DNA of 41,559 nt from Escherichia phage DN1. The position numbers and the translations under genes are program-made. Of the stretch, positions 736 to 41,559 are shown piece after piece (positions within the stretch are counted from its first letter, which is position 1; the number at the start of each line of letters is the position of its first letter). The stretch lies in sequence record MF374379.1; one strand, written 5' to 3'. The notes under the pieces are model-generated. The model did not search any database and was not told the origin of the DNA. It saw only the letters and a program-made list of their open reading frames with translations.

Positions 736-4416
<3,681 letters not shown>

Positions 4417-4436
<20 letters not shown>

Positions 4437-5736
4437 TCTCCCGCATATTGCCAGCATGGCCTTTAATGAGCCGCTGATGCTTGAACCCGCCTATGCGCGG
4501 GTTTTCTTTTGTGCGCTTGCAGGCCAGCTTGGGATCAGCAGCCTGACGGATGCGGTGTCCGGCGACAGCCTGACTGCCCAGGAGGCACTCGCGACGCTGG
4601 CATTATCCGGTGATGATGACGGACCACGACAGGCCCGCAGTTATCAGGTCATGAACGGCATCGCCGTGCTGCCGGTGTCCGGCACGCTGGTCAGCCGGAC
4701 GCGGGCGCTGCAGCCGTACTCGGGGATGACCGGTTACAACGGCATTATCGCCCGTCTGCAACAGGCTGCCAGCGATCCGATGGTGGACGGCATTCTGCTC
4801 GATATGGACACGCCCGGCGGGATGGTGGCGGGGGCATTTGACTGCGCTGACATCATCGCCCGTGTGCGTGACATAAAACCGGTATGGGCGCTTGCCAACG
4901 ACATGAACTGCAGTGCAGGTCAGTTGCTTGCCAGTGCCGCCTCCCGGCGTCTGGTCACGCAGACCGCCCGGACAGGCTCCATCGGCGTCATGATGGCTCA
5001 CAGTAATTACGGTGCTGCGCTGGAGAAACAGGGTGTGGAAATCACGCTGATTTACAGCGGCAGCCATAAGGTGGATGGCAACCCCTACAGCCATCTTCCG
5101 GATGACGTCCGGGAGACACTGCAGTCCCGGATGGACGCAACCCGCCAGATGTTTGCGCAGAAGGTGTCGGCATATACCGGCCTGTCCGTGCAGGTTGTGC
5201 TGGATACCGAGGCTGCAGTGTACAGCGGTCAGGAGGCCATTGATGCCGGACTGGCTGATGAACTTGTTAACAGCACCGATGCGATCACCGTCATGCGTGA
5301 TGCACTGGATGCACGTAAATCCCGTCTCTCAGGAGGGCGAATGACCAAAGAGACTCAATCAACAACTGTTTCAGCCACTGCTTCGCAGGCTGACGTTACT
5401 GACGTGGTGCCAGCGACGGAGGGCGAGAACGCCAGCGCGGCGCAGCCGGACGTGAACGCGCAGATCACCGCAGCGGTTGCGGCAGAAAACAGCCGCATTA
5501 TGGGGATACTCAACTGTGAGGAGGCTCACGGACGCGAAGAACAGGCACGCGTGCTGGCAGAAACCCCCGGTATGACCGTGAAAACGGCCCGCCGCATTCT
5601 GGCCGCAGCACCACAGAGTGCACAGGCGCGCAGTGACACTGCGCTGGATCGTCTGATGCAGGGGGCACCGGCACCGCTGGCTGCAGGTAACCCGGCATCT
5701 GATGCCGTTAACGATTTGCTGAACACACCAGTGTAA
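4417..5736 (+). CDS. C: Capsid assembly protease C (GTG start; ORF track extends upstream to 4282)
   Basis: In-frame GTG at 4417 gives MTAELRNLPHIASMAFNEPLMLEPAYARVFF; ClpP/SppA-like peptidase region; overlaps the B 3' end. Confidence 0.85.
5131..5736 (+). CDS. nu3: Scaffolding protein Nu3 (internal in-frame start within C)
   Basis: ATG at 5131 is in frame with C and sits at the canonical lambda Nu3 position (MDATRQMFAQK...). Confidence 0.75.
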   Translation: MDATRQMFAQKVSAYTGLSVQVVLDTEAAVYSGQEAIDAGLADELVNSTDAITVMRDALDARKSRLSGGRMTKETQSTTVSATASQADVTDVVPATEGENASAAQPDVNAQITAAVAAENSRIMGILNCEEAHGREEQARVLAETPGMTVKTARRILAAAPQSAQARSDTALDRLMQGAPAPLAAGNPASDAVNDLLNTPV

Positions 5737-5745
5737 GGGATGTTT

Positions 5746-6078
5746 ATGACGAGCAAAGAAACCTTTACCCATTACCAGCCGCAGGGCAACAGTGACCCGG
5801 CTCATACCGCAACCGCGCCCGGCGGATTGAGTGCGAAAGCGCCTGCAATGACCCCGCTGATGCTGGACACCTCCAGCCGTAAGCTGGTTGCGTGGGATGG
5901 CACCACCGACGGTGCTGCCGTTGGCATTCTTGCGGTTGCTGCTGACCAGACCAGCACCACGCTGACGTTCTACAAGTCCGGCACGTTCCGTTATGAGGAT
6001 GTGCTCTGGCCGGAGGCTGCCAGCGACGAGACGAAAAAACGGACCGCGTTTGCCGGAACGGCAATCAGCATCGTTTAA
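5746..6078 (+). CDS. D: Head decoration protein D
   Basis: [27 protein letters not shown]...; ORF track start at 5740 is two codons upstream. Confidence 0.9.
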
Positions 6079-6133
6079 CTTTACCCTTCATCACTAAAGG
6101 CCGCCTGTGCGGCTTTTTTTACGGGATTTTTTT

Positions 6134-7159
6134 ATGTCGATGTACACAACCGCCCAACTGCTGGCGGCAAATGAGCAGAAATTTAAGTTTGATCCGCTGT
6201 TTCTGCGTCTCTTTTTCCGTGAGAGCTATCCCTTCACCACGGAGAAAGTCTATCTCTCACAAATTCCGGGACTGGTAAACATGGCGCTGTACGTTTCGCC
6301 GATTGTTTCCGGTGAGGTTATCCGTTCCCGTGGCGGCTCCACCTCTGAATTTACGCCGGGATATGTCAAGCCGAAGCATGAAGTGAATCCGCAGATGACC
6401 CTGCGTCGCCTGCCGGATGAAGATCCGCAGAATCTGGCGGACCCGGCTTACCGCCGCCGTCGCATCATCATGCAGAACATGCGTGACGAAGAGCTGGCCA
6501 TTGCTCAGGTCGAAGAGATGCAGGCAGTTTCTGCCGTGCTTAAGGGCAAATACACCATGACCGGTGAAGCCTTCGATCCGGTTGAGGTGGATATGGGCCG
6601 CAGTGAGGAGAATAACATCACGCAGTCCGGCGGCACGGAGTGGAGCAAGCGTGACAAGTCCACGTATGACCCGACCGACGATATCGAAGCCTACGCGCTG
6701 AACGCCAGCGGTGTGGTGAATATCATCGTGTTCGATCCGAAAGGCTGGGCGCTGTTCCGTTCCTTCAAAGCCGTCAAGGAGAAGCTGGATACCCGTCGTG
6801 GCTCTAATTCCGAGCTGGAGACAGCGGTGAAAGACCTGGGCAAAGCGGTGTCCTATAAGGGGATGTATGGCGATGTGGCCATCGTCGTGTATTCCGGACA
6901 GTACGTGGAAAACGGCGTCAAAAAGAACTTCCTGCCGGACAACACGATGGTGCTGGGGAACACTCAGGCACGCGGTCTGCGCACCTATGGCTGCATTCAG
7001 GATGCGGACGCACAGCGCGAAGGCATTAACGCCTCTGCCCGTTACCCGAAAAACTGGGTGACCACCGGCGATCCGGCGCGTGAGTTCACCATGATTCAGT
7101 CAGCACCGCTGATGCTGCTGGCTGACCCTGATGAGTTCGTGTCCGTACAACTGGCGTAA
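6134..7159 (+). CDS. E: Major capsid protein E
   Basis: MSMYTTAQLLAANEQKFKFDPLFLRLFFRESYPF...; HK97-fold major capsid protein of lambda; ORF track extends upstream to 6107. Confidence 0.95.
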   Translation: MSMYTTAQLLAANEQKFKFDPLFLRLFFRESYPFTTEKVYLSQIPGLVNMALYVSPIVSGEVIRSRGGSTSEFTPGYVKPKHEVNPQMTLRRLPDEDPQNLADPAYRRRRIIMQNMRDEELAIAQVEEMQAVSAVLKGKYTMTGEAFDPVEVDMGRSEENNITQSGGTEWSKRDKSTYDPTDDIEAYALNASGVVNIIVFDPKGWALFRSFKAVKEKLDTRRGSNSELETAVKDLGKAVSYKGMYGDVAIVVYSGQYVENGVKKNFLPDNTMVLGNTQARGLRTYGCIQDADAQREGINASARYPKNWVTTGDPAREFTMIQSAPLMLLADPDEFVSVQLA

Positions 7160-7200
7160 TCATGGCCCTTCGGGGCCATTGTTTCTCTGTGGAGGAGTCC

Positions 7201-7599
7201 ATGACGAAAGATGAACTGATTGCCCGTCTCCGCTCGCTGGGTGAACAACTGAACCGTGATGTCAGCCTGACGGGGACGAAAGAAGAACTGGCGCTCCGTG
7301 TGGCAGAGCTGAAAGAGGAGCTTGATGACACGGATGAAACTGCCGGTCAGGACACCCCTCTCAGCCGGGAAAATGTGCTGACCGGACATGAAAATGAGGT
7401 GGGATCAGCGCAGCCGGATACCGTGATTCTGGATACGTCTGAACTGGTCACGGTCGTGGCACTGGTGAAGCTGCATACTGATGCACTTCACGCCACGCGG
7501 GATGAACCTGTGGCATTTGTGCTGCCGGGAACGGCGTTTCGTGTCTCTGCCGGTGTGGCAGCCGAAATGACAGAGCGCGGCCTGGCCAGAATGCAATAA
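7201..7599 (+). CDS. FI: DNA packaging protein FI
   Basis: MTKDELIARLRSLGEQLNRDVSLTGTKEELALRVAELKEEL; lambda FI position. Confidence 0.85.
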   Translation: MTKDELIARLRSLGEQLNRDVSLTGTKEELALRVAELKEELDDTDETAGQDTPLSRENVLTGHENEVGSAQPDTVILDTSELVTVVALVKLHTDALHATRDEPVAFVLPGTAFRVSAGVAAEMTERGLARMQ

Positions 7600-7610
7600 C
7601 GGGAGGCGCT

Positions 7611-7964
7611 GTGGCTGATTTCGATAACCTGTTCGATGCTGCCATTGCCCGCGCCGATGAAACGATACGCGGGTACATGGGAACGTCAGCCACCATTACA
7701 TCCGGTGAGCAGTCAGGTGCGGTGATACGTGGTGTTTTTGATGACCCTGAAAATATCAGCTATGCCGGACAGGGCGTGCGCGTTGAAGGCTCCAGCCCGT
7801 CCCTGTTTGTCCGGACTGATGAGGTGCGGCAGCTGCGGCGTGGAGACACGCTGACCATCGGTGAGGAAAATTTCTGGGTAGATCGGGTTTCGCCGGATGA
7901 TGGCGGAAGTTGTCATCTCTGGCTTGGACGGGGCGTACCGCCTGCCGTTAACCGTCGCCGCTGA
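7611..7964 (+). CDS. FII: Head-tail connector FII
   Basis: 117-aa ORF MADFDNLFDAAIARADETIRGYMG at the lambda FII position. Confidence 0.9.
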   Translation: MADFDNLFDAAIARADETIRGYMGTSATITSGEQSGAVIRGVFDDPENISYAGQGVRVEGSSPSLFVRTDEVRQLRRGDTLTIGEENFWVDRVSPDDGGSCHLWLGRGVPPAVNRRR

Positions 7965-7975
7965 AAGGGGGATGT

Positions 7976-8554
7976 ATGGCCATAAAAGGTCTTGAGCAGG
8001 CCGTTGAAAACCTCAGCCGTATCAGCAAAACGGCGGTGCCTGGTGCCGCCGCAATGGCCATTAACCGCGTTGCTTCATCCGCGATATCGCAGTCGGCGTC
8101 ACAGGTTGCCCGTGAGACAAAGGTACGCCGGAAACTGGTAAAGGAAAGGGCCAGGCTGAAAAGGGCCACGGTCAAAAATCCGCAGGCCAGAATCAAAGTT
8201 AACCGGGGGGATTTGCCCGTAATCAAGCTGGGTAATGCGCGGGTTGTCCTTTCGCGCCGCAGGCGTCGTAAAAAGGGGCAGCGTTCATCCCTGAAAGGTG
8301 GCGGCAGCGTGCTTGTGGTGGGTAACCGTCGTATTCCCGGCGCGTTTATTCAGCAACTGAAAAATGGCCGGTGGCATGTCATGCAGCGTGTGGCTGGGAA
8401 AAACCGTTACCCCATTGATGTGGTGAAAATCCCGATGGCGGTGCCGCTGACCACGGCGTTTAAACAAAATATTGAGCGGATACGGCGTGAACGTCTTCCG
8501 AAAGAGCTGGGCTATGCGCTGCAGCATCAACTGAGGATGGTAATAAAGCGATGA
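7976..8554 (+). CDS. Z: Tail completion protein Z
   Basis: 192-aa ORF at the lambda Z position. Confidence 0.9.
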   Translation: MAIKGLEQAVENLSRISKTAVPGAAAMAINRVASSAISQSASQVARETKVRRKLVKERARLKRATVKNPQARIKVNRGDLPVIKLGNARVVLSRRRRRKKGQRSSLKGGGSVLVVGNRRIPGAFIQQLKNGRWHVMQRVAGKNRYPIDVVKIPMAVPLTTAFKQNIERIRRERLPKELGYALQHQLRMVIKR

Positions 8555-8946
8555 AACATACTGAACTCCGTGCAGCCGTACTGGATGCACTGGAGAAGCA
8601 TGACACCGGGGCGACGTTTTTTGATGGTCGCCCCGCTGTTTTTGATGAGGCGGATTTTCCGGCAGTTGCCGTTTATCTCACCGGCGCTGAATACACGGGC
8701 GAAGAGCTGGACAGCGATACCTGGCAGGCGGAGCTGCATATCGAAGTTTTCCTGCCTGCTCAGGTGCCGGATTCAGAGCTGGATGCGTGGATGGAGTCCC
8801 GGATTTATCCGGTGATGAGCGATATCCCGGCACTGTCAGATTTGATCACCAGTATGGTGGCCAGCGGCTATGACTACCGGCGCGACGATGATGCGGGCTT
8901 GTGGAGTTCAGCCGATCTGACTTATGTCATTACCTATGAAATGTGA
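8551..8946 (+). CDS. U: Tail terminator protein U
   Basis: 131-aa [34 protein letters not shown]; overlaps the Z stop. Confidence 0.9.
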
Positions 8947-8953
8947 GGACGCT

Positions 8954-9694
8954 ATGCCTGTACCAAATCCTACAATGCCGGTGAAAGGTGCCGGGACCAC
9001 CCTGTGGGTTTATAAGGGGAGCGGTGACCCTTACGCGAATCCGCTTTCAGACGTTGACTGGTCGCGTCTGGCAAAAGTTAAAGACCTGACGCCCGGCGAA
9101 CTGACCGCTGAGTCCTATGACGACAGCTATCTCGATGATGAAGATGCAGACTGGACTGCGACCGGGCAGGGGCAGAAATCTGCCGGAGATACCAGCTTCA
9201 CGCTGGCGTGGATGCCCGGAGAGCAGGGGCAGCAGGCGCTGCTGGCGTGGTTTAATGAAGGCGATACCCGTGCCTATAAAATCCGCTTCCCGAACGGCAC
9301 GGTCGATGTGTTCCGTGGCTGGGTCAGCAGTATCGGTAAGGCGGTGACGGCGAAGGAAGTGATCACCCGCACGGTGAAAGTCACCAATGTGGGACGTCCG
9401 TCGATGGCAGAAGATCGCAGCACGGTAACAGCGGCAACCGGCATGACCGTGACGCCTGCCAGCACCTCGGTGGTGAAAGGGCAGAGCACCACGCTGACCG
9501 TGGCCTTCCAGCCGGAGGGCGTAACCGACAAGAGCTTTCGTGCGGTGTCTGCGGATAAAACAAAAGCCACCGTGTCGGTCAGTGGTATGACCATCACCGT
9601 GAACGGCGTTGCTGCAGGCAAGGTCAACATTCCGGTTGTATCCGGTAATGGTGAGTTTGCTGCGGTTGCAGAAATTACCGTCACCGCCAGTTAA
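8954..9694 (+). CDS. V: Major tail tube protein V
   Basis: [36 protein letters not shown]..., with a C-terminal Ig-like region; ORF track starts 10 codons upstream at 8924. Confidence 0.9.
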
Positions 9695-9709
9695 TCCGGA
9701 GAGTCAGCG

Positions 9710-10132
9710 ATGTTCCTGAAAACCGAATCATTTGAACATAACGGTGTGACCGTCACGCTTTCTGAACTGTCAGCCCTGCAGCGCATTGAGCATCTCGCCC
9801 TGATGAAACGGCAGGCAGAACAGGCGGAGTCAGACAGCAACCGGAAGTTTACTGTGGAAGACGCCATCAGAACCGGCGCGTTTCTGGTGGCGATGTCCCT
9901 GTGGCATAACCATCCGCAGAAGACGCAGATGCCGTCCATGAATGAAGCCGTTAAACAGATTGAGCAGGAAGTGCTTACCACCTGGCCCACGGAGGCAATT
10001 TCTCATGCTGAAAACGTGGTGTACCGGCTGTCTGGTATGTATGAGTTTGTGGTGAATAATGCCCCTGAACAGACAGAGGACGCCGGGCCCGCAGAGCCTG
10101 TTTCTGCGGGAAAGTGTTCGACGGTGAGCTGA
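9710..10132 (+). CDS. G: Tail assembly chaperone G
   Basis: 140-aa ORF directly upstream of the tape measure gene; lambda G. Confidence 0.9.
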   Translation: MFLKTESFEHNGVTVTLSELSALQRIEHLALMKRQAEQAESDSNRKFTVEDAIRTGAFLVAMSLWHNHPQKTQMPSMNEAVKQIEQEVLTTWPTEAISHAENVVYRLSGMYEFVVNNAPEQTEDAGPAEPVSAGKCSTVS

Positions 10133-39026: not shown

Positions 39027-39484
39027 GCAGAGTCACCGCGATTATCTCCGCTCTGGTTATCTGCATCATCGTCTGCCTGTCATGGGCTGTTAATCATTAC
39101 CGTGATAACGCCATTACCTACAAAGCCCAGCGCGACAAAAATGCCAGAGAACTGAAGCTGGCGAACGCGGCAATTACTGACATGCAGATGCGTCAGCGTG
39201 ATGTTGCTGCGCTCGATGCAAAATACACGAAGGAGTTAGCTGATGCTAAAGCTGAAAATGATGCTCTGCGTGATGATGTTGCCGCTGGTCGTCGTCGGTT
39301 GCACATCAAAGCAGTCTGTCAGTCAGTGCGTGAAGCCACCACCGCCTCCGGCGTGGATAATGCAGCCTCCCCCCGACTGGCAGACACCGCTGAACGGGAT
39401 TATTTCACCCTCAGAGAGAGGCTGATCACTATGCAAAAACAACTGGAAGGAACCCAGAAGTATATTAATGAGCAGTGCAGATAG
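39023..39484 (+). CDS. Rz: Spanin inner-membrane subunit Rz
   Basis: 153 aa; N-terminal TM segment then coiled coil. Confidence 0.9.
39243..39425 (+). CDS. Rz1: Spanin outer-membrane lipoprotein Rz1, embedded in Rz in the +1 frame
   Basis: 60 aa, [24 protein letters not shown] (lipobox) with a Pro-rich C-terminus; entirely inside Rz. Confidence 0.85.
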
Positions 39485-39515: not shown

Positions 39516-39809
39516 TTATTTTGAGCAATACACACGCGCTTCCAGCGGAGTATAAATGCCTAAAGTAATAAAACCGAGCAATCCATTTACGAATGTTTGC
39601 TGGGTTTCTGTTTTAACAACATTTTCTGCGCCGCCACAAATTTTAGCTGCATCGACAGTTTTCTTCTGCCCAATTCCAGAAACGAAGAAATGATGGGTGA
39701 TGGTTTCCTTTGGTGCTACTGCTGCCGGTTTGTTTTGAACAGTAAACGTCTGTTGAGCACATCCTGTAATAAGCAGGGCCAGCGCAGTAGCGAGTAGCAT
39801 TTTTTTCAT
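39516..39809 (-). CDS. bor: Bor lipoprotein (serum-resistance-associated)
   Basis: 97 aa, MKKMLLATALALLITGCAQQTF (lipobox LITGC). Confidence 0.9.
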   Translation of the reverse strand: MKKMLLATALALLITGCAQQTFTVQNKPAAVAPKETITHHFFVSGIGQKKTVDAAKICGGAENVVKTETQQTFVNGLLGFITLGIYTPLEARVYCSK

Positions 39810-40098
39810 GGTGTTATTCCCGATGCTTTTTGAAGTTCGCAGAATCGTATGTGTAGAAAATTAAACAAACCCTAAACAATGAGTTGAAATTTCATATTGT
39901 TAATATTTATTAATGTATGTCAGGTGCGATGAATCGTCATTGTATTCCCGGATTAACTATGTCCACAGCCCTGACGGGGAACTTCTCTGCGGGAGTGTCC
40001 GGGAATAATTAAAACGATGCACACAGGGTTTAGCGCGTACACGTATTGCATTATGCCAACGCCCCGGTGCTGACACGGAAGAAACCGGACGTTATGAT

Positions 40099-40632
40099 TT
40101 AGCGTGGAAAGATTTGTGTAGTGTTCTGAATGCTCTCAGTAAATAGTAATGAATTATCAAAGGTATAGTAATATCTTTTATGTTCATGGATATTTGTAAC
40201 CCATCGGAAAACTCCTGCTTTAGCAAGATTTTCCCTGTATTGCTGAAATGTGATTTCTCTTGATTTCAACCTATCATAGGACGTTTCTATAAGATGCGTG
40301 TTTCTTGAGAATTTAACATTTACAACCTTTTTAAGTCCTTTTATTAACACGGTGTTATCGTTTTCTAACACGATGTGAATATTATCTGTGGCTAGATAGT
40401 AAATATAATGTGAGACGTTGTGACGTTTTAGTTCAGAATAAAACAATTCACAGTCTAAATCTTTTCGCACTTGATCGAATATTTCTTTAAAAATGGCAAC
40501 CTGAGCCATTGGTAAAACCTTCCATGTGATACGAGGGCGCGTAGTTTGCATTATCGTTTTTATCGTTTCAATCTGGTCTGACCTCCTTGTGTTTTGTTGA
40601 TGATTTATGTCAAATATTAGGAATGTTTTCAC
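40099..40632 (-). CDS. Uncharacterised right-end protein (matches the position of lambda p78)
   Basis: 177-aa ORF in an AT-rich segment; no motif I can assign. Confidence 0.6.
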
Positions 40633-40794
40633 TTAATAGTATTGGTTGCGTAACAAAGTGCGGTCCTGCTGGCATTCTGGAGGGAAATACAACCGACAGA
40701 TGTATGTAAGGCCAACGTGCTCAAATCTTCATACAGAAAGATTTGAAGTAATATTTTAACCGCTAGATGAAGAGCAAGCGCATGGAGCGACAAA

Positions 40795-41001
40795 ATGAAT
40801 AAAGAACAATCTGCTGATGATCCCTCCGTGGATCTGATTCGTGTAAAAAATATGCTTAATAGCACCATTTCTATGAGTTACCCTGATGTTGTAATTGCAT
40901 GTATAGAACATAAGGTGTCTCTGGAAGCATTCAGAGCAATTGAGGCAGCGTTGGTGAAGCACGATAATAATATGAAGGATTATTCCCTGGTGGTTGACTG
41001 A
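40795..41001 (+). CDS. Small uncharacterised right-end ORF (matches the position of lambda p79)
   Basis: 68-aa [45 protein letters not shown]. Confidence 0.5.
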
Positions 41002-41165
41002 TCACCATAACTGCTAATCATTCAAACTATTTAGTCTGTGACAGAGCCAACACGCAGTCTGTCACTGTCAGGAAAGTGGTAAAACTGCAACTCAATTACT
41101 GCAATGCCCTCGTAATTAAGTGAATTTACAATATCGTCCTGTTCGGAGGGAAGAACGCGGGATGT

Positions 41166-41360
41166 TCATTCTTCATCACTTTTAATTGATGTATATGCTC
41201 TCTTTTCTGACGTTAGTCTCCGACGGCAGGCTTCAATGACCCAGGCTGAGAAATTCCCGGACCCTTTTTGCTCAAGAGCGATGTTAATTTGTTCAATCAT
41301 TTGGTTAGGAAAGCGGATGTTGCGGGTTGTTGTTCTGCGGGTTCTGTTCTTCGTTGACAT
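41166..41360 (-). CDS. Small ribbon-helix-helix-like ORF near cosR (hypothetical)
   Basis: 64 aa; RNIRFPNQMIEQINIALEQKGSGNFSAWVIEACRRRL fits a beta-strand / helix / helix pattern typical of Arc/CopG/ParD-type domains. Expression unknown. Confidence 0.4.
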   Translation of the reverse strand: MSTKNRTRRTTTRNIRFPNQMIEQINIALEQKGSGNFSAWVIEACRRRLTSEKRAYTSIKSDEE

Positions 41361-41499
41361 GAGGTTGCCCCGTATTCAGTGTCGCTGATTTGTATTGTCT
41401 GAAGTTGTTTTTACGTTAAGTTGATGCAGATCAATTAATACGATACCTGCGTCATAATTGATTATTTGACGTGGTTTGATGGCCTCCACGCACGTTGTG

Positions 41500-41559
41500 A
41501 TATGTAGATGATAATCATTATCACTTTACGGGTCCTTTCCGGTGATCCGACAGGTTACG
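41500..41559. other. cos: Right cos end (cosQ region and terminal bases)
   Basis: Window ends ...ACGGGTCCTTTCCGGTGATCCGACAGGTTACG, which I recognise as the right end of mature lambda DNA. Confidence 0.85.

Follow-up and report, generated by a model that had tools for sequence, protein, structure and literature searches.

The window analysed here is the whole 41,559-nt DNA of Escherichia phage DN1 (MF374379.1). The RefSeq record of phage O276 is 100 % identical to it, and the offset from window to lambda coordinates is +6943. A preliminary description of the window had noted that, past the lysis genes, the GC content falls and the genes lie mostly on the opposite strand. The fall was borne out: GC content is 39.7 % in positions 39516–41360 vs 53.1 % in the whole window, which is the eighth lowest value among 398 windows of equal size. 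The ORF coordinates of that description were all recovered by our ORF listing. We assigned the following features.

39443..39457, minus strand: terminator-like hairpin with T-run, 3' of bor (consensus scan)
39516..39809, minus strand: bor, serum-resistance outer-membrane lipoprotein, 97 aa (Lambda_Bor, E=1.9e-30; phrog_260, E=4.3e-58)
39896..39923, minus strand: sigma-70-like promoter match CTGACA-16-AACAAT, 5' of bor (consensus scan, pattern match only)
40017..40042, minus strand: terminator-like hairpin, 3' of the DUF1398 gene (consensus scan)
40099..40632, minus strand: lambdap78, DUF1398 (YbcV/YdfO) protein, maximal ORF of 177 aa (Pfam DUF1398, E=2.2e-46)
40571..40587, no strand: PdhR-box-like site ATCTGGTCTGACCTC in the divergent p78/p79 control region (sequence match)
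40795..41001, plus strand: lambdap79 / YbcW, 68 aa (phrog_657, E=7.5e-48; annotated in lambda and O276)
41166..41360, minus strand: ylcI homologue, 64 aa, DUF3950 / YlcI-YnfO family, predicted ribbon-helix-helix (RHH) protein (profiles, AF2, Foldseek)
41214..41360, minus strand: conserved ylcI core, codons 1–49, with basic arm, predicted beta-strand I15-R16-F17, helix A, N36 cap and helix B
41430..41462, no strand: palindrome ATCAATTAATACG-N7-CGTCATAATTGAT with 13-nt arms, 70–102 bp 5' of the ylcI start (repeat search)

The strand assignment holds for bor (annotated in the lambda and O276 records), p78 and the 64-aa ORF, but the annotated 68-aa gene, lambdap79, is on the plus strand. A minus-strand ORF of 68 aa (40756–40962) overlaps lambdap79, lacks any family match and was taken as spurious. 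In the consensus scan the region held four terminator-like sites where 1.1 were expected. PADLOC returned zero defence-system matches for the region's four proteins. Lambdap79 was described in a 2026 preprint as the activator of the Vulcan NADase defence that is deleted in lambda-vir escapers (10.64898/2026.09.04.749371).

The 177-aa protein of the preliminary description exists as an ORF, but only as the maximal one. Within it, the Pfam DUF1398 match spans only residues 49–167, and the structure of YdfO (PDB 2HH8) matches only residues 40–177 (E=4.4e-71). A GGAAGG Shine–Dalgarno sequence lies 8 nt 5' of M42, and YbcV is annotated with 136 aa in an E. coli chromosome carrying a DLP12-type prophage (L007). 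The real start of p78 is thus probably M42, which would give a coding sequence of 136 aa at 40099–40509. The PdhR-box-like site falls within the supposed N-terminal extension of the 177-aa ORF. ATCTGGTCTGACCTC occurs once in the window and differs at 1 of 17 positions from the PdhR site of DLP12 ybcV/ybcW. In a pdhR mutant, ybcV and ybcW mRNA are down ~10-fold, and PdhR activates both genes (PMC7660256). By CRISPRi, lambdap78 is non-essential (PMC10695390).

Identity and coding status of the 64-aa ORF

The preliminary description did not recall the last ORF (41166–41360) from the classical lambda map, and it is indeed absent from J02459 and NC_001416. The O276 RefSeq record labels the same ORF 'YlcI/YnfO family protein'. 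The lambda ORF scored 72.8 bits against Pfam DUF3950 (PF13132; cut-off 25) and 37.6 bits against the NCBIfam model YlcI_YnfO_N (NF041551; cut-off 30), and it matched phrog_949 with E=2.5e-35. Its product is identical in all 64 aa (100 %) to the YlcI of E. coli K-12, as encoded on the chromosome with the DLP12-type prophage. With YnfO of the Qin prophage it shares the core of residues 1–49, whereas the C-terminal tail differs. The gene order of L007, essD-rrrD-rzpD-bor-ybcV-ybcW-ylcI-nohD, mirrors the lambda order S-R-Rz-bor-p78-p79-ORF-cos. Wherever ylcI is listed in E. coli, it carries a PGAP annotation. The 64-aa ORF is therefore the lambda copy of an already catalogued family and not a new discovery. 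The searchable literature holds no published experiments on any DUF3950 family member.

The reading frame is under strong purifying selection. For codons 1–49 the median dN/dS was 0.044 (71 pairs with dS>0.1, 15 distinct core sequences), after leaving out many database 'homologues' that are error-ridden copies of lambda control DNA. Synonymous sites of the core are near saturation (dS 0.7–2.3) and amino-acid changes affect just 3–8 of the 49 codons. Past codon ~50, different prophages carry unrelated tails, which vary by prophage type in a mosaic manner. Recombination junctions fall at codons ~45–54, and the conserved core remains linked to the cos side. The lambda ATG is preceded at 7 nt by a Shine–Dalgarno-like GGGG; homologues in HK97-type prophages have stronger sites, GAGGAAAG or AAGGAAAT. 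We conclude that ylcI is a genuine protein-coding gene.

We considered whether the ORF might instead be untranslated and conserved as cos-proximal DNA, for packaging termination or as another DNA or RNA element. Its omission from the classical lambda annotations and the high conservation, among lambda-type prophages, of the 200 bp from the ORF to the chromosome end would fit such an element. Against this, synonymous sites are nearly saturated between lineages (dS up to 2.3) and few amino acids change, and the DUF3950 family reaches ~35–60 % identity across many Enterobacterales in non-cos contexts. Moreover, Rfam gave zero matches (E≤1), and the fold of the convergent p79–ylcI gap was not unusual (z=0). 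The dN/dS values effectively refute this reading, to which we give a negligible probability.

The suggestion of the preliminary description that this might be no more than a conserved ORF within the region near cosQ was not sustained either. CosQ is a 7-bp element ~30 bp from the nick site. GGGTCCT was read directly at 41530–41536 on the plus strand, followed by the right chromosome end at 41559; we take this heptamer to be cosQ (lambda bp 48473–48479). The start codon at 41360 lies 170 bp from this presumed cosQ, and ylcI is conserved at the protein level but not at the DNA level.

In every lambdoid prophage examined, ylcI is the last gene before the cos/packaging genes and is on the opposite strand. 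This fixed slot is common to lambda-type and HK97-type lambdoid prophages. The gene precedes Nu1/nohA/nohD in the former and, in the latter, is divergent from HNH-terS-terL at a distance of 42 bp. DNA matches to ylcI were found in 4184 of 5426 complete E. coli genomes (77 %). The presence of bor, p78 and p79 varies: ev203 lacks p78 and p79, and the Qin-type prophage of L008 lacks ybcW.

Morons such as bor and lom are transcribed autonomously from within the late operon and are distinct from it in composition. The preliminary description called the whole cluster moron-like, which fits bor and the p78/p79 pair and applies less well to ylcI with its fixed slot near the packaging module. Like lambdoid morons, ylcI is AT-rich and lies on the minus strand between lysis and packaging genes. 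It differs from them in its fixed position and its distribution; given this slot across prophage types and the matches in 77 % of the E. coli genomes, ylcI is not sporadic cargo. Bor and p78 have promoter-like or terminator-like sites, but the consensus scan found neither a sigma-70-like promoter on the minus strand 5' of ylcI (by eye, weak candidates only) nor a terminator-like site 3' of it. Since ylcI is antisense to the late pR' transcript, it would need a promoter of its own between 41361 and the right end, and its expression probably does not depend on the late operon and takes place in prophages too. At least 50 % of the samples in a meta-analysis of E. coli K-12 RNA-seq data show ybcW and ylcI as a convergent excludon (PMC12288877). 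The DLP12 copy is therefore, as is the case for morons, transcribed without phage induction.

Lambda is the reference temperate phage, and its two reference records omit a strongly selected gene. A CRISPRi essentiality map of lambda did not target ylcI (PMC10695390); being unannotated in lambda, the gene is missed by gene-by-gene screens of this kind.

Predicted fold of YlcI

The preliminary description saw a clear beta-alpha-alpha RHH pattern in the 64-aa product. In the AF2 monomer model, residues 11–18 are extended and are followed by helices at 19–32 and 37–62 (pLDDT 72; core 72–84). The confidence of this model is moderate, and a strand modelled in a single chain cannot be scored as part of a sheet. 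A Foldseek search of the PDB gave RHH or RHH-like proteins as ~47 of the top 50 neighbours (rmsd 2.1–2.5 Å over ~40 residues), among them NikR, StnY/CopG, HicB, MazE, Arc, ParD, VapB, NikA, CopA, MatP and TCP. None of the YlcI hits had E<0.1 (best E 0.39, best probability 0.87).

In profile searches, weak matches to HicB-like and Arc-like profiles recurred among family members. The HicB-like phrog_497 was matched by 10 of 23 family members (best 8.3e-5) and the Arc-like phrog_228 by three of the 23 (best 6.8e-4); lambda YlcI itself gave 0.02 and 0.19, respectively. Family members did not match Pfam RHH families, save one against RHH_6 (E=0.09). Sequence searches of the PDB with two family profiles returned nothing significant: the CopG-family RHH protein 9kkd had E=0.5–1.3 and was slightly outscored by a short segment of a non-RHH Argonaute.

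Across 35 family members R16, F37, S38 and V41 are invariant, and I15, F17 and N36 (just ahead of helix B) are nearly so. The resulting pattern I15-R16-F17 ... N36-F37-S38-x-W40-V41 fits an RHH strand and the start of helix B. YlcI shares with the RHH repressors of phages and plasmids (P22 Arc, Mnt, CopG, omega) and with RHH antitoxins the small size and the basic arm ahead of a predicted strand and two helices; the predicted strand alternates hydrophobic and polar residues with a conserved Arg, and an Asn would cap helix B, while the structural neighbours lie at ~2.2 Å rmsd. It differs from them in that the turn, usually G-x-S/T/N, lacks a conserved Gly in this family and that helix B is predicted to extend into a long helix or tail. 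Of the preliminary claim, the strand-helix-helix layout and the RHH-dominated neighbourhood stand, but statistical significance was not reached. Neither of the two outcomes that would have spoken against that claim, a frame not conserved among lambdoid phages and a model lacking the RHH layout, was observed. We conclude that YlcI probably has an RHH fold, which the model and its neighbours support below statistical significance.

According to this model, the 49-residue core would form an RHH module followed by a variable tail. K4, R6, R8, R9 and R13 would make up a basic N-terminal arm. In the predicted strand N14–P18, I15 and F17 would face the core and the invariant R16 would point outward; helix A would span residues 19–32, with Asn36 capping a helix B that starts at 37. 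If YlcI works as Arc, Mnt, CopG and the RHH antitoxins do, the strands of two chains would join in a ribbon and insert into the major groove of DNA. A small dimer of this kind might regulate genes by binding specific DNA sequences, most likely to repress them. We hold a DNA-binding RHH regulator to be the best reading of the model, though not a proven one. That ylcI is a genuine DUF3950 gene whose predicted RHH core makes it a small DNA-binding regulator, as the preliminary description had proposed, we regard as fairly likely. Assigning DUF3950 to an RHH DNA-binding fold would provide a testable function for the E. coli genes ylcI and ynfO.

The RHH antitoxins (the C-terminal domain of HicB, ParD, MazE-type) are structural neighbours of the YlcI model, none of them significant. 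They raise the alternative that the core dimerizes and binds DNA and that the variable tail neutralizes or regulates a partner, such as the neighbouring DUF1398 protein, in the manner of type II toxin–antitoxin pairs. This would be in line with HicB-like antitoxins as the best sub-threshold profile matches, with the many antitoxins (MazE, ParD, VapB, HicB) among the structural neighbours, and with a tail that differs by prophage type. In the Qin-type prophage of L008 and in phage ev099, ynfO/ylcI is moreover co-oriented with a DUF1398 gene and lies ~57 bp 5' of it. In lambda and L007, however, ybcW intervenes on the other strand between the two genes, and HK97-type prophages and satellites have neither a DUF1398 neighbour nor another partner. 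A DUF1398 neighbour thus exists in some lineages only, and a conserved adjacent toxin partner was not found. PADLOC matched neither YlcI nor the DUF1398 protein, and DUF1398 is not known to be toxic. Taken together, we consider an antitoxin-like function very improbable.

Upstream DNA, satellite homologues and the proposed role

We searched the DNA 5' of ylcI for operator-like repeats. In lambda there were five, compared with 5.2±3.9 by chance, and 0 direct 10-mer pairs. The palindrome at 41430–41462 is kept in all lambda-type cos loci and missing from HK97-type loci. It therefore tracks lambda-type cos only and was dropped as a YlcI operator.

Most distant DUF3950 homologues are located in satellite control regions, either of PICI or of helper-embedded satellites. 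At 23 of 40 loci with a distant homologue, an integrase homologue, a primase homologue or both were present within 5 kb, which identifies satellites of the type int-alpA ... primase. In these satellites the DUF3950 homologue is on the other strand from the early or replication operon and points away from it, and in 11 of 17 loci of this kind it is preceded by two or three operator-like direct repeats spaced ~23 bp. Small repressors that regulate their own gene usually stand in such a setting. The satellite homologues thus resemble RHH repressors in standing at divergent promoters with iterated repeats, whereas lambda ylcI lacks operator repeats.

In seven protein clusters (45–65 % mutual identity), DUF3950 is fused to the N-terminal HTH DNA-binding domain of Terminase_2. 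These DUF3950–TerS fusions were seen in satellites only, and the satellite fusion protein repeats the predicted strand-helix-helix layout in its N-terminal half. One satellite (L010) sits inside an HK97-like prophage that itself carries ylcI. The HTH of its fusion protein shares 66 % identity with the TerS N-terminus of ylcI-carrying HK97-like Stx-type prophages, and 53 % with the TerS of the satellite itself. As a second habitat of the family, the control regions and the TerS fusions suggest phage–satellite interplay as a subject for experiment.

DUF3950 homologues share the satellite control-region setting with the regulatory ('Bro'/immunity) zone genes that Gram-negative PICIs and helper-embedded satellites carry (Tommasini, Mageeney and Williams 2022). 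The fusion resembles Rpp (Fillol-Salom et al. 2019) in having a TerS-like DNA-binding domain without the TerL-binding part. Unlike Rpp, a winged-HTH protein with its own oligomerization domain, the fusion is of the predicted RHH type. The descriptions in Tommasini et al. 2022 and Fillol-Salom et al. 2019 do not include DUF3950 genes.

These fusions bear on a second alternative, in which YlcI would bind near cos, either to DNA or to the small terminase subunit, and would modulate terminase access, cos cleavage or packaging competition and not transcription. The constant position of ylcI directly ahead of cos and the packaging genes would agree with this, as would the linkage of the conserved core to the cos side (junctions at codons ~45–54) and the fusion to a TerS-type HTH in seven clusters, with the 66 % identity of the L010 HTH to helper-type TerS. 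However, co-inheritance is explicable by physical linkage alone, the fusion is confined to satellites, and the repeat search found no binding-site repeats beside lambda cos. Furthermore, cos fragments of ~200 bp without the ylcI ORF are sufficient for packaging, so ylcI cannot be required for it. We therefore consider a packaging role unlikely.

Returning to the RHH regulator, a role of YlcI in satellite biology is conjecture. DUF3950 RHH proteins might be a shared currency of helper–satellite conflict, an idea to which we assign a low probability. Lambdoid phages would keep one DUF3950 gene beside the cos/terminase module, and PICI or helper-embedded satellites would keep one or two in the control zone before iterated operators, sometimes fused to the HTH of a helper-type TerS. 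If so, YlcI might cross-regulate satellite control regions, affecting immunity or induction, or alternatively help or counter TerS at cos during packaging competition. This would place an unrecognized function at the very right end of lambda. The gain from the present analysis is modest: an annotation is mended and a concrete hypothesis added, but the system is not of a new kind.

Long minus-strand ORFs (~250–420 aa) over satellite DUF3950 genes were rejected as artefacts of longest-ORF calling. BLAST of one such ORF (L072) aligned no more than its last ~50 residues with the 67-aa gene of the satellite.

The right-end cluster and the identity of its 64-aa ORF

Over its last 2.1 kb the window shared 100% identity with the lambda derivatives O276 and DE3, and 99.8% with lambda. 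The right cohesive end is the end of the window, and window positions in this region equal lambda positions minus 6943. The preliminary description had proposed an AT-rich, moron-like cluster after the lysis genes. GC content did drop, from 0.506 over S-R-Rz to 0.397 over 39516-41360 (0.531 for the whole window), which was the eighth lowest value among 398 windows of equal size, and the four ORFs described were all found in place:

39516-39809, minus strand: bor
40099-40632, minus strand: maximal ORF of 177 aa (lambdap78)
40795-41001, plus strand: 68-aa ORF (lambdap79, YbcW)
41166-41360, minus strand: 64-aa ORF (ylcI)

The bor product is the serum-resistance lipoprotein (Pfam and PHROG matches). 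A second 68-aa ORF, on the minus strand and overlapping the first, had no family match.

The 64-aa ORF is ylcI. It matched Pfam DUF3950 with 72.8 bits (cut-off 25), NCBIfam YlcI_YnfO_N with 37.6 bits (cut-off 30) and phrog_949 (E=2.5e-35). Its product and the YlcI annotated for one E. coli chromosome are 100% identical; the DLP12-type prophage of that chromosome has the gene order of lambda, essD-rrrD-rzpD-bor-ybcV-ybcW-ylcI-nohD. DNA matches occurred in 4184 of 5426 complete E. coli genomes (at most 12 per genome), and among the matches listed every one carried a YlcI/YnfO annotation. As had been suspected, the ORF is without an entry in the classical lambda records J02459 and NC_001416; the RefSeq record of O276 already names it YlcI/YnfO. 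The lambda 'orf-64' (lambdap73), located between Q and S, is a distinct gene and should not be confused with ylcI. Both the cluster and the 64-aa ORF are already catalogued, and the other genes of the cluster are known. Our analysis adds that ylcI is under selection, that DUF3950 is probably a ribbon-helix-helix (RHH) family, that the place of the gene next to cos and terminase is invariant, and that the family is connected with satellites and TerS fusions. The outcome, a correction of the lambda annotation and a testable hypothesis, is of modest interest.

Selection, predicted fold and expression of YlcI

We compared 15 different core sequences, taken from prophages of the lambda and HK97 types and from one Rouxiella chromosome. 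The reading frame was kept, with a median dN/dS of 0.044 over codons 1-49 (Nei-Gojobori; 71 pairs with dS>0.1); a typical pair had 15-24 synonymous and 3-8 non-synonymous differences, and dS reached 2.3. Low dN/dS at such high dS rules out DNA-level conservation, for instance on account of cos function, and a non-coding explanation of the ORF is excluded. We conclude that ylcI is a real gene. Beyond codon ~50 the tails were unrelated between lineages and nucleotide matches ended at codons ~45-54; therefore, the 3' end of ylcI is a mosaic junction, while the conserved core remains linked to the cos side.

The AlphaFold2 model of YlcI (23 family sequences; mean pLDDT 72, core 78-84) consisted of an extended segment (residues 11-18) followed by helices 19-32 and 37-62. 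This monomer model has the RHH layout that the preliminary description had read from the sequence. A Foldseek search of the PDB gave no match at E<0.1; among the 50 best neighbours, about 47 were RHH or RHH-like, superposing at 2.1-2.5 Å over ~40 residues, and the neighbours included NikR, StnY (CopG family), HicB, MazE, Arc, ParD, NikA, CopA, MatP and the TCP domain. Weak but recurrent matches were obtained to a HicB-like PHROG (10 of 23 family members, best 8.3e-5) and an Arc-like PHROG (3 of 23, best 6.8e-4), and in the PDB sequence search the CopG-family entry 9kkd scored no better than E=0.5. In a 35-member alignment R16, F37, S38 and V41 were invariant and I15, F17, I25, N36, W40, A44 and C45 nearly so, the pattern predicted for an RHH strand with a DNA-facing arginine, then helix B from its N-cap through its first turns. 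Taken together, an RHH fold is likely rather than demonstrated.

The sequence GGGG, 7 nt 5' of the ylcI ATG, is a plausible ribosome-binding site; the HK97-type homologues have a stronger one. A scan for a consensus promoter and terminator of ylcI found none. An RNA-seq meta-analysis of E. coli K-12 (PMC12288877) recorded ybcW-ylcI as a convergent excludon in 50% or more of the samples, so uninduced cells do transcribe the DLP12 copy. The best-supported reading, which we favour with some reserve, is that YlcI would be a small predicted RHH DNA-binding regulator, its gene being expressed antisense to the late operon from a promoter of its own.

Linkage to packaging genes and to satellites

In every lambdoid prophage examined, ylcI was the last gene before the packaging genes and lay on the opposite strand. 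In the lambda type, ~390 bp separate its start from nohD/nohA/terS, with cos in between; in HK97-type Stx prophages, the start lies 42 bp from a divergent HNH endonuclease gene, followed by terS and terL. The neighbours on the other side vary (bor, ybcV, ybcW, perC, tonB-like or none). YlcI has no conserved partner, which makes an antitoxin-like role unlikely. Two further features lie between ylcI and the right end:

41376-41489, minus strand: 37-aa GTG-start ORF directly 5' of ylcI (O276 gene 69, hypothetical protein)
41430-41462: palindrome with 13-nt arms, ATCAATTAATACG-N7-CGTCATAATTGAT, ~100-130 bp from the right end

The 37-aa ORF is located in conserved cos-proximal DNA, has the O276 annotation as its sole support and is probably not a gene. 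The palindrome was kept in all lambda-type cos loci and missing from HK97-type loci; we know of no function assigned to it. The sequence GGGTCCT at 41530-41536, which we take to be cosQ, is 170 bp from the ylcI start codon, so the ORF lies outside cosQ, and the earlier suggestion of just a conserved ORF inside the cosQ-proximal region does not hold.

Beyond lambdoid prophages, the DUF3950 family is spread across Enterobacterales. The family is limited in size, with 142 clusters at 50% identity, and many of these are artefacts. Of 40 distant loci, 23 had a homologue of a satellite integrase and/or primase no more than 5 kb away. In satellites, the DUF3950 gene lies on the strand opposite to the rest, divergent from an Icd-like/primase operon. 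One E. coli locus (L010, CP027459.1) carries at 2090-9876 an int-alpA-primase-terS-capsid satellite of ~8 kb, inserted in an HK97-like Stx-type prophage between TerL and a 61-aa TerS fragment, an arrangement that fits the 'helper-embedded satellites' of Tommasini et al. 2022. This satellite has two DUF3950 genes:

L010 7590-7772, opposite strand: DUF3950 gene, 60 aa
L010 8001-8363, opposite strand: DUF3950 RHH-TerS(HTH) fusion

We analysed the 130 bp preceding 17 satellite DUF3950 genes, 15 of them in loci of the L054-L090 range and the other two being the L010 genes at 7590 and 8001. Direct 10-mer repeats exceeded the shuffled expectation in 11 of the 17, typically as two sites ~23 bp apart, with a third near the start in some loci. 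Each satellite had its own motif of 10-14 bp in two or three copies (e.g. GGTGCACAAACAC, TGTGCGCACA, GTTTAAACAC, GGTACGTACC), which looks like a putative operator array. The lambda region upstream of ylcI had no such repeats. By eye, motif variants seemed to go with the residues that immediately precede the IRF strand (TKG vs YKG); this comparison, uncontrolled for phylogeny, would fit repressor-operator co-variation.

In seven protein clusters, DUF3950 was fused to the N-terminal HTH of Terminase_2, the proteins stopping right after the HTH. In the AlphaFold2 model of the fusion, a disordered linker connected an RHH-like half to an HTH predicted with confidence (pLDDT>90). In the L010 fusion, the HTH shared 66% identity with the N-terminus of TerS from the ylcI-bearing type of HK97-like prophage and 53% with the satellite's own TerS. 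These TerS-domain fusions and the fixed linkage of ylcI to the packaging module leave some room for a packaging-related role of YlcI or for a satellite-related one; the two overlap, and we consider each improbable.

Long opposite-strand ORFs (~250-420 aa) overlapped satellite DUF3950 genes in seven loci (L058, L061, L064, L070, L072, L073, L086) and in the phage/satellite vB_KppS-Ant (L005 3134-4108); a public record annotates one of them as a gene of 975 bp. For the L072 ORF, the only one checked by BLAST, matches to the satellite's 67-aa gene were limited to the C-terminal ~50 residues. The long ORFs thus appear to be artefacts of annotation that mask the DUF3950 gene.

Neighbouring genes and stray lambda DNA

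The 177-aa ORF encodes a DUF1398 protein (YbcV/YdfO; PDB 2HH8). It exists as described, and its real start is probably M42 (product of 136 aa), since YbcV in the E. coli DLP12-type locus is annotated from the equivalent position, a Shine-Dalgarno sequence (GGAAGG) lies 8 nt 5' of M42, all homology begins at about residue 40, and the supposed N-terminal extension (40507-40632) contains this site:

40571-40587: PdhR-box-like site; its homologue in DLP12 is a PdhR box mapped between ybcV and ybcW (PMC7660256)

The site within the extension and the Shine-Dalgarno sequence before M42 suggest that lambdap78 is over-extended in NC_001416 and that it makes up, with lambdap79, a divergent pair under host regulation.

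According to a 2026 preprint (10.64898/2026.09.04.749371), lambdap79 is the activator (trigger) of the Vulcan NADase defence, and lambda-vir escapers had deleted it by recombination with the Qin prophage. A Qin-type locus contained ydfO-ynfO and lacked ybcW, and these recombinants may have swapped ylcI for ynfO as well. By CRISPRi, bor and lambdap78 are non-essential and lambdap79 is 'essential', at odds with the literature cited there (PMC10695390); we attribute the latter call to polarity on the late transcript.

Copies of the lambda right end, in many cases contigs of ~3.5 kb, were also found in assemblies of many unrelated organisms (L014-L052, e.g. L015 Kitasatospora, L016 Pseudomonas, L017 Cohnella and L022, an Arcanobacterium 'plasmid'; proteins P0001-P0120), sometimes labelled as a plasmid or another phage (H29, 'Campylobacter phage CJLB-4'). 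These copies are almost certainly sequencing-control lambda DNA, and they load protein databases with frameshifted, error-bearing YlcI 'homologues'.
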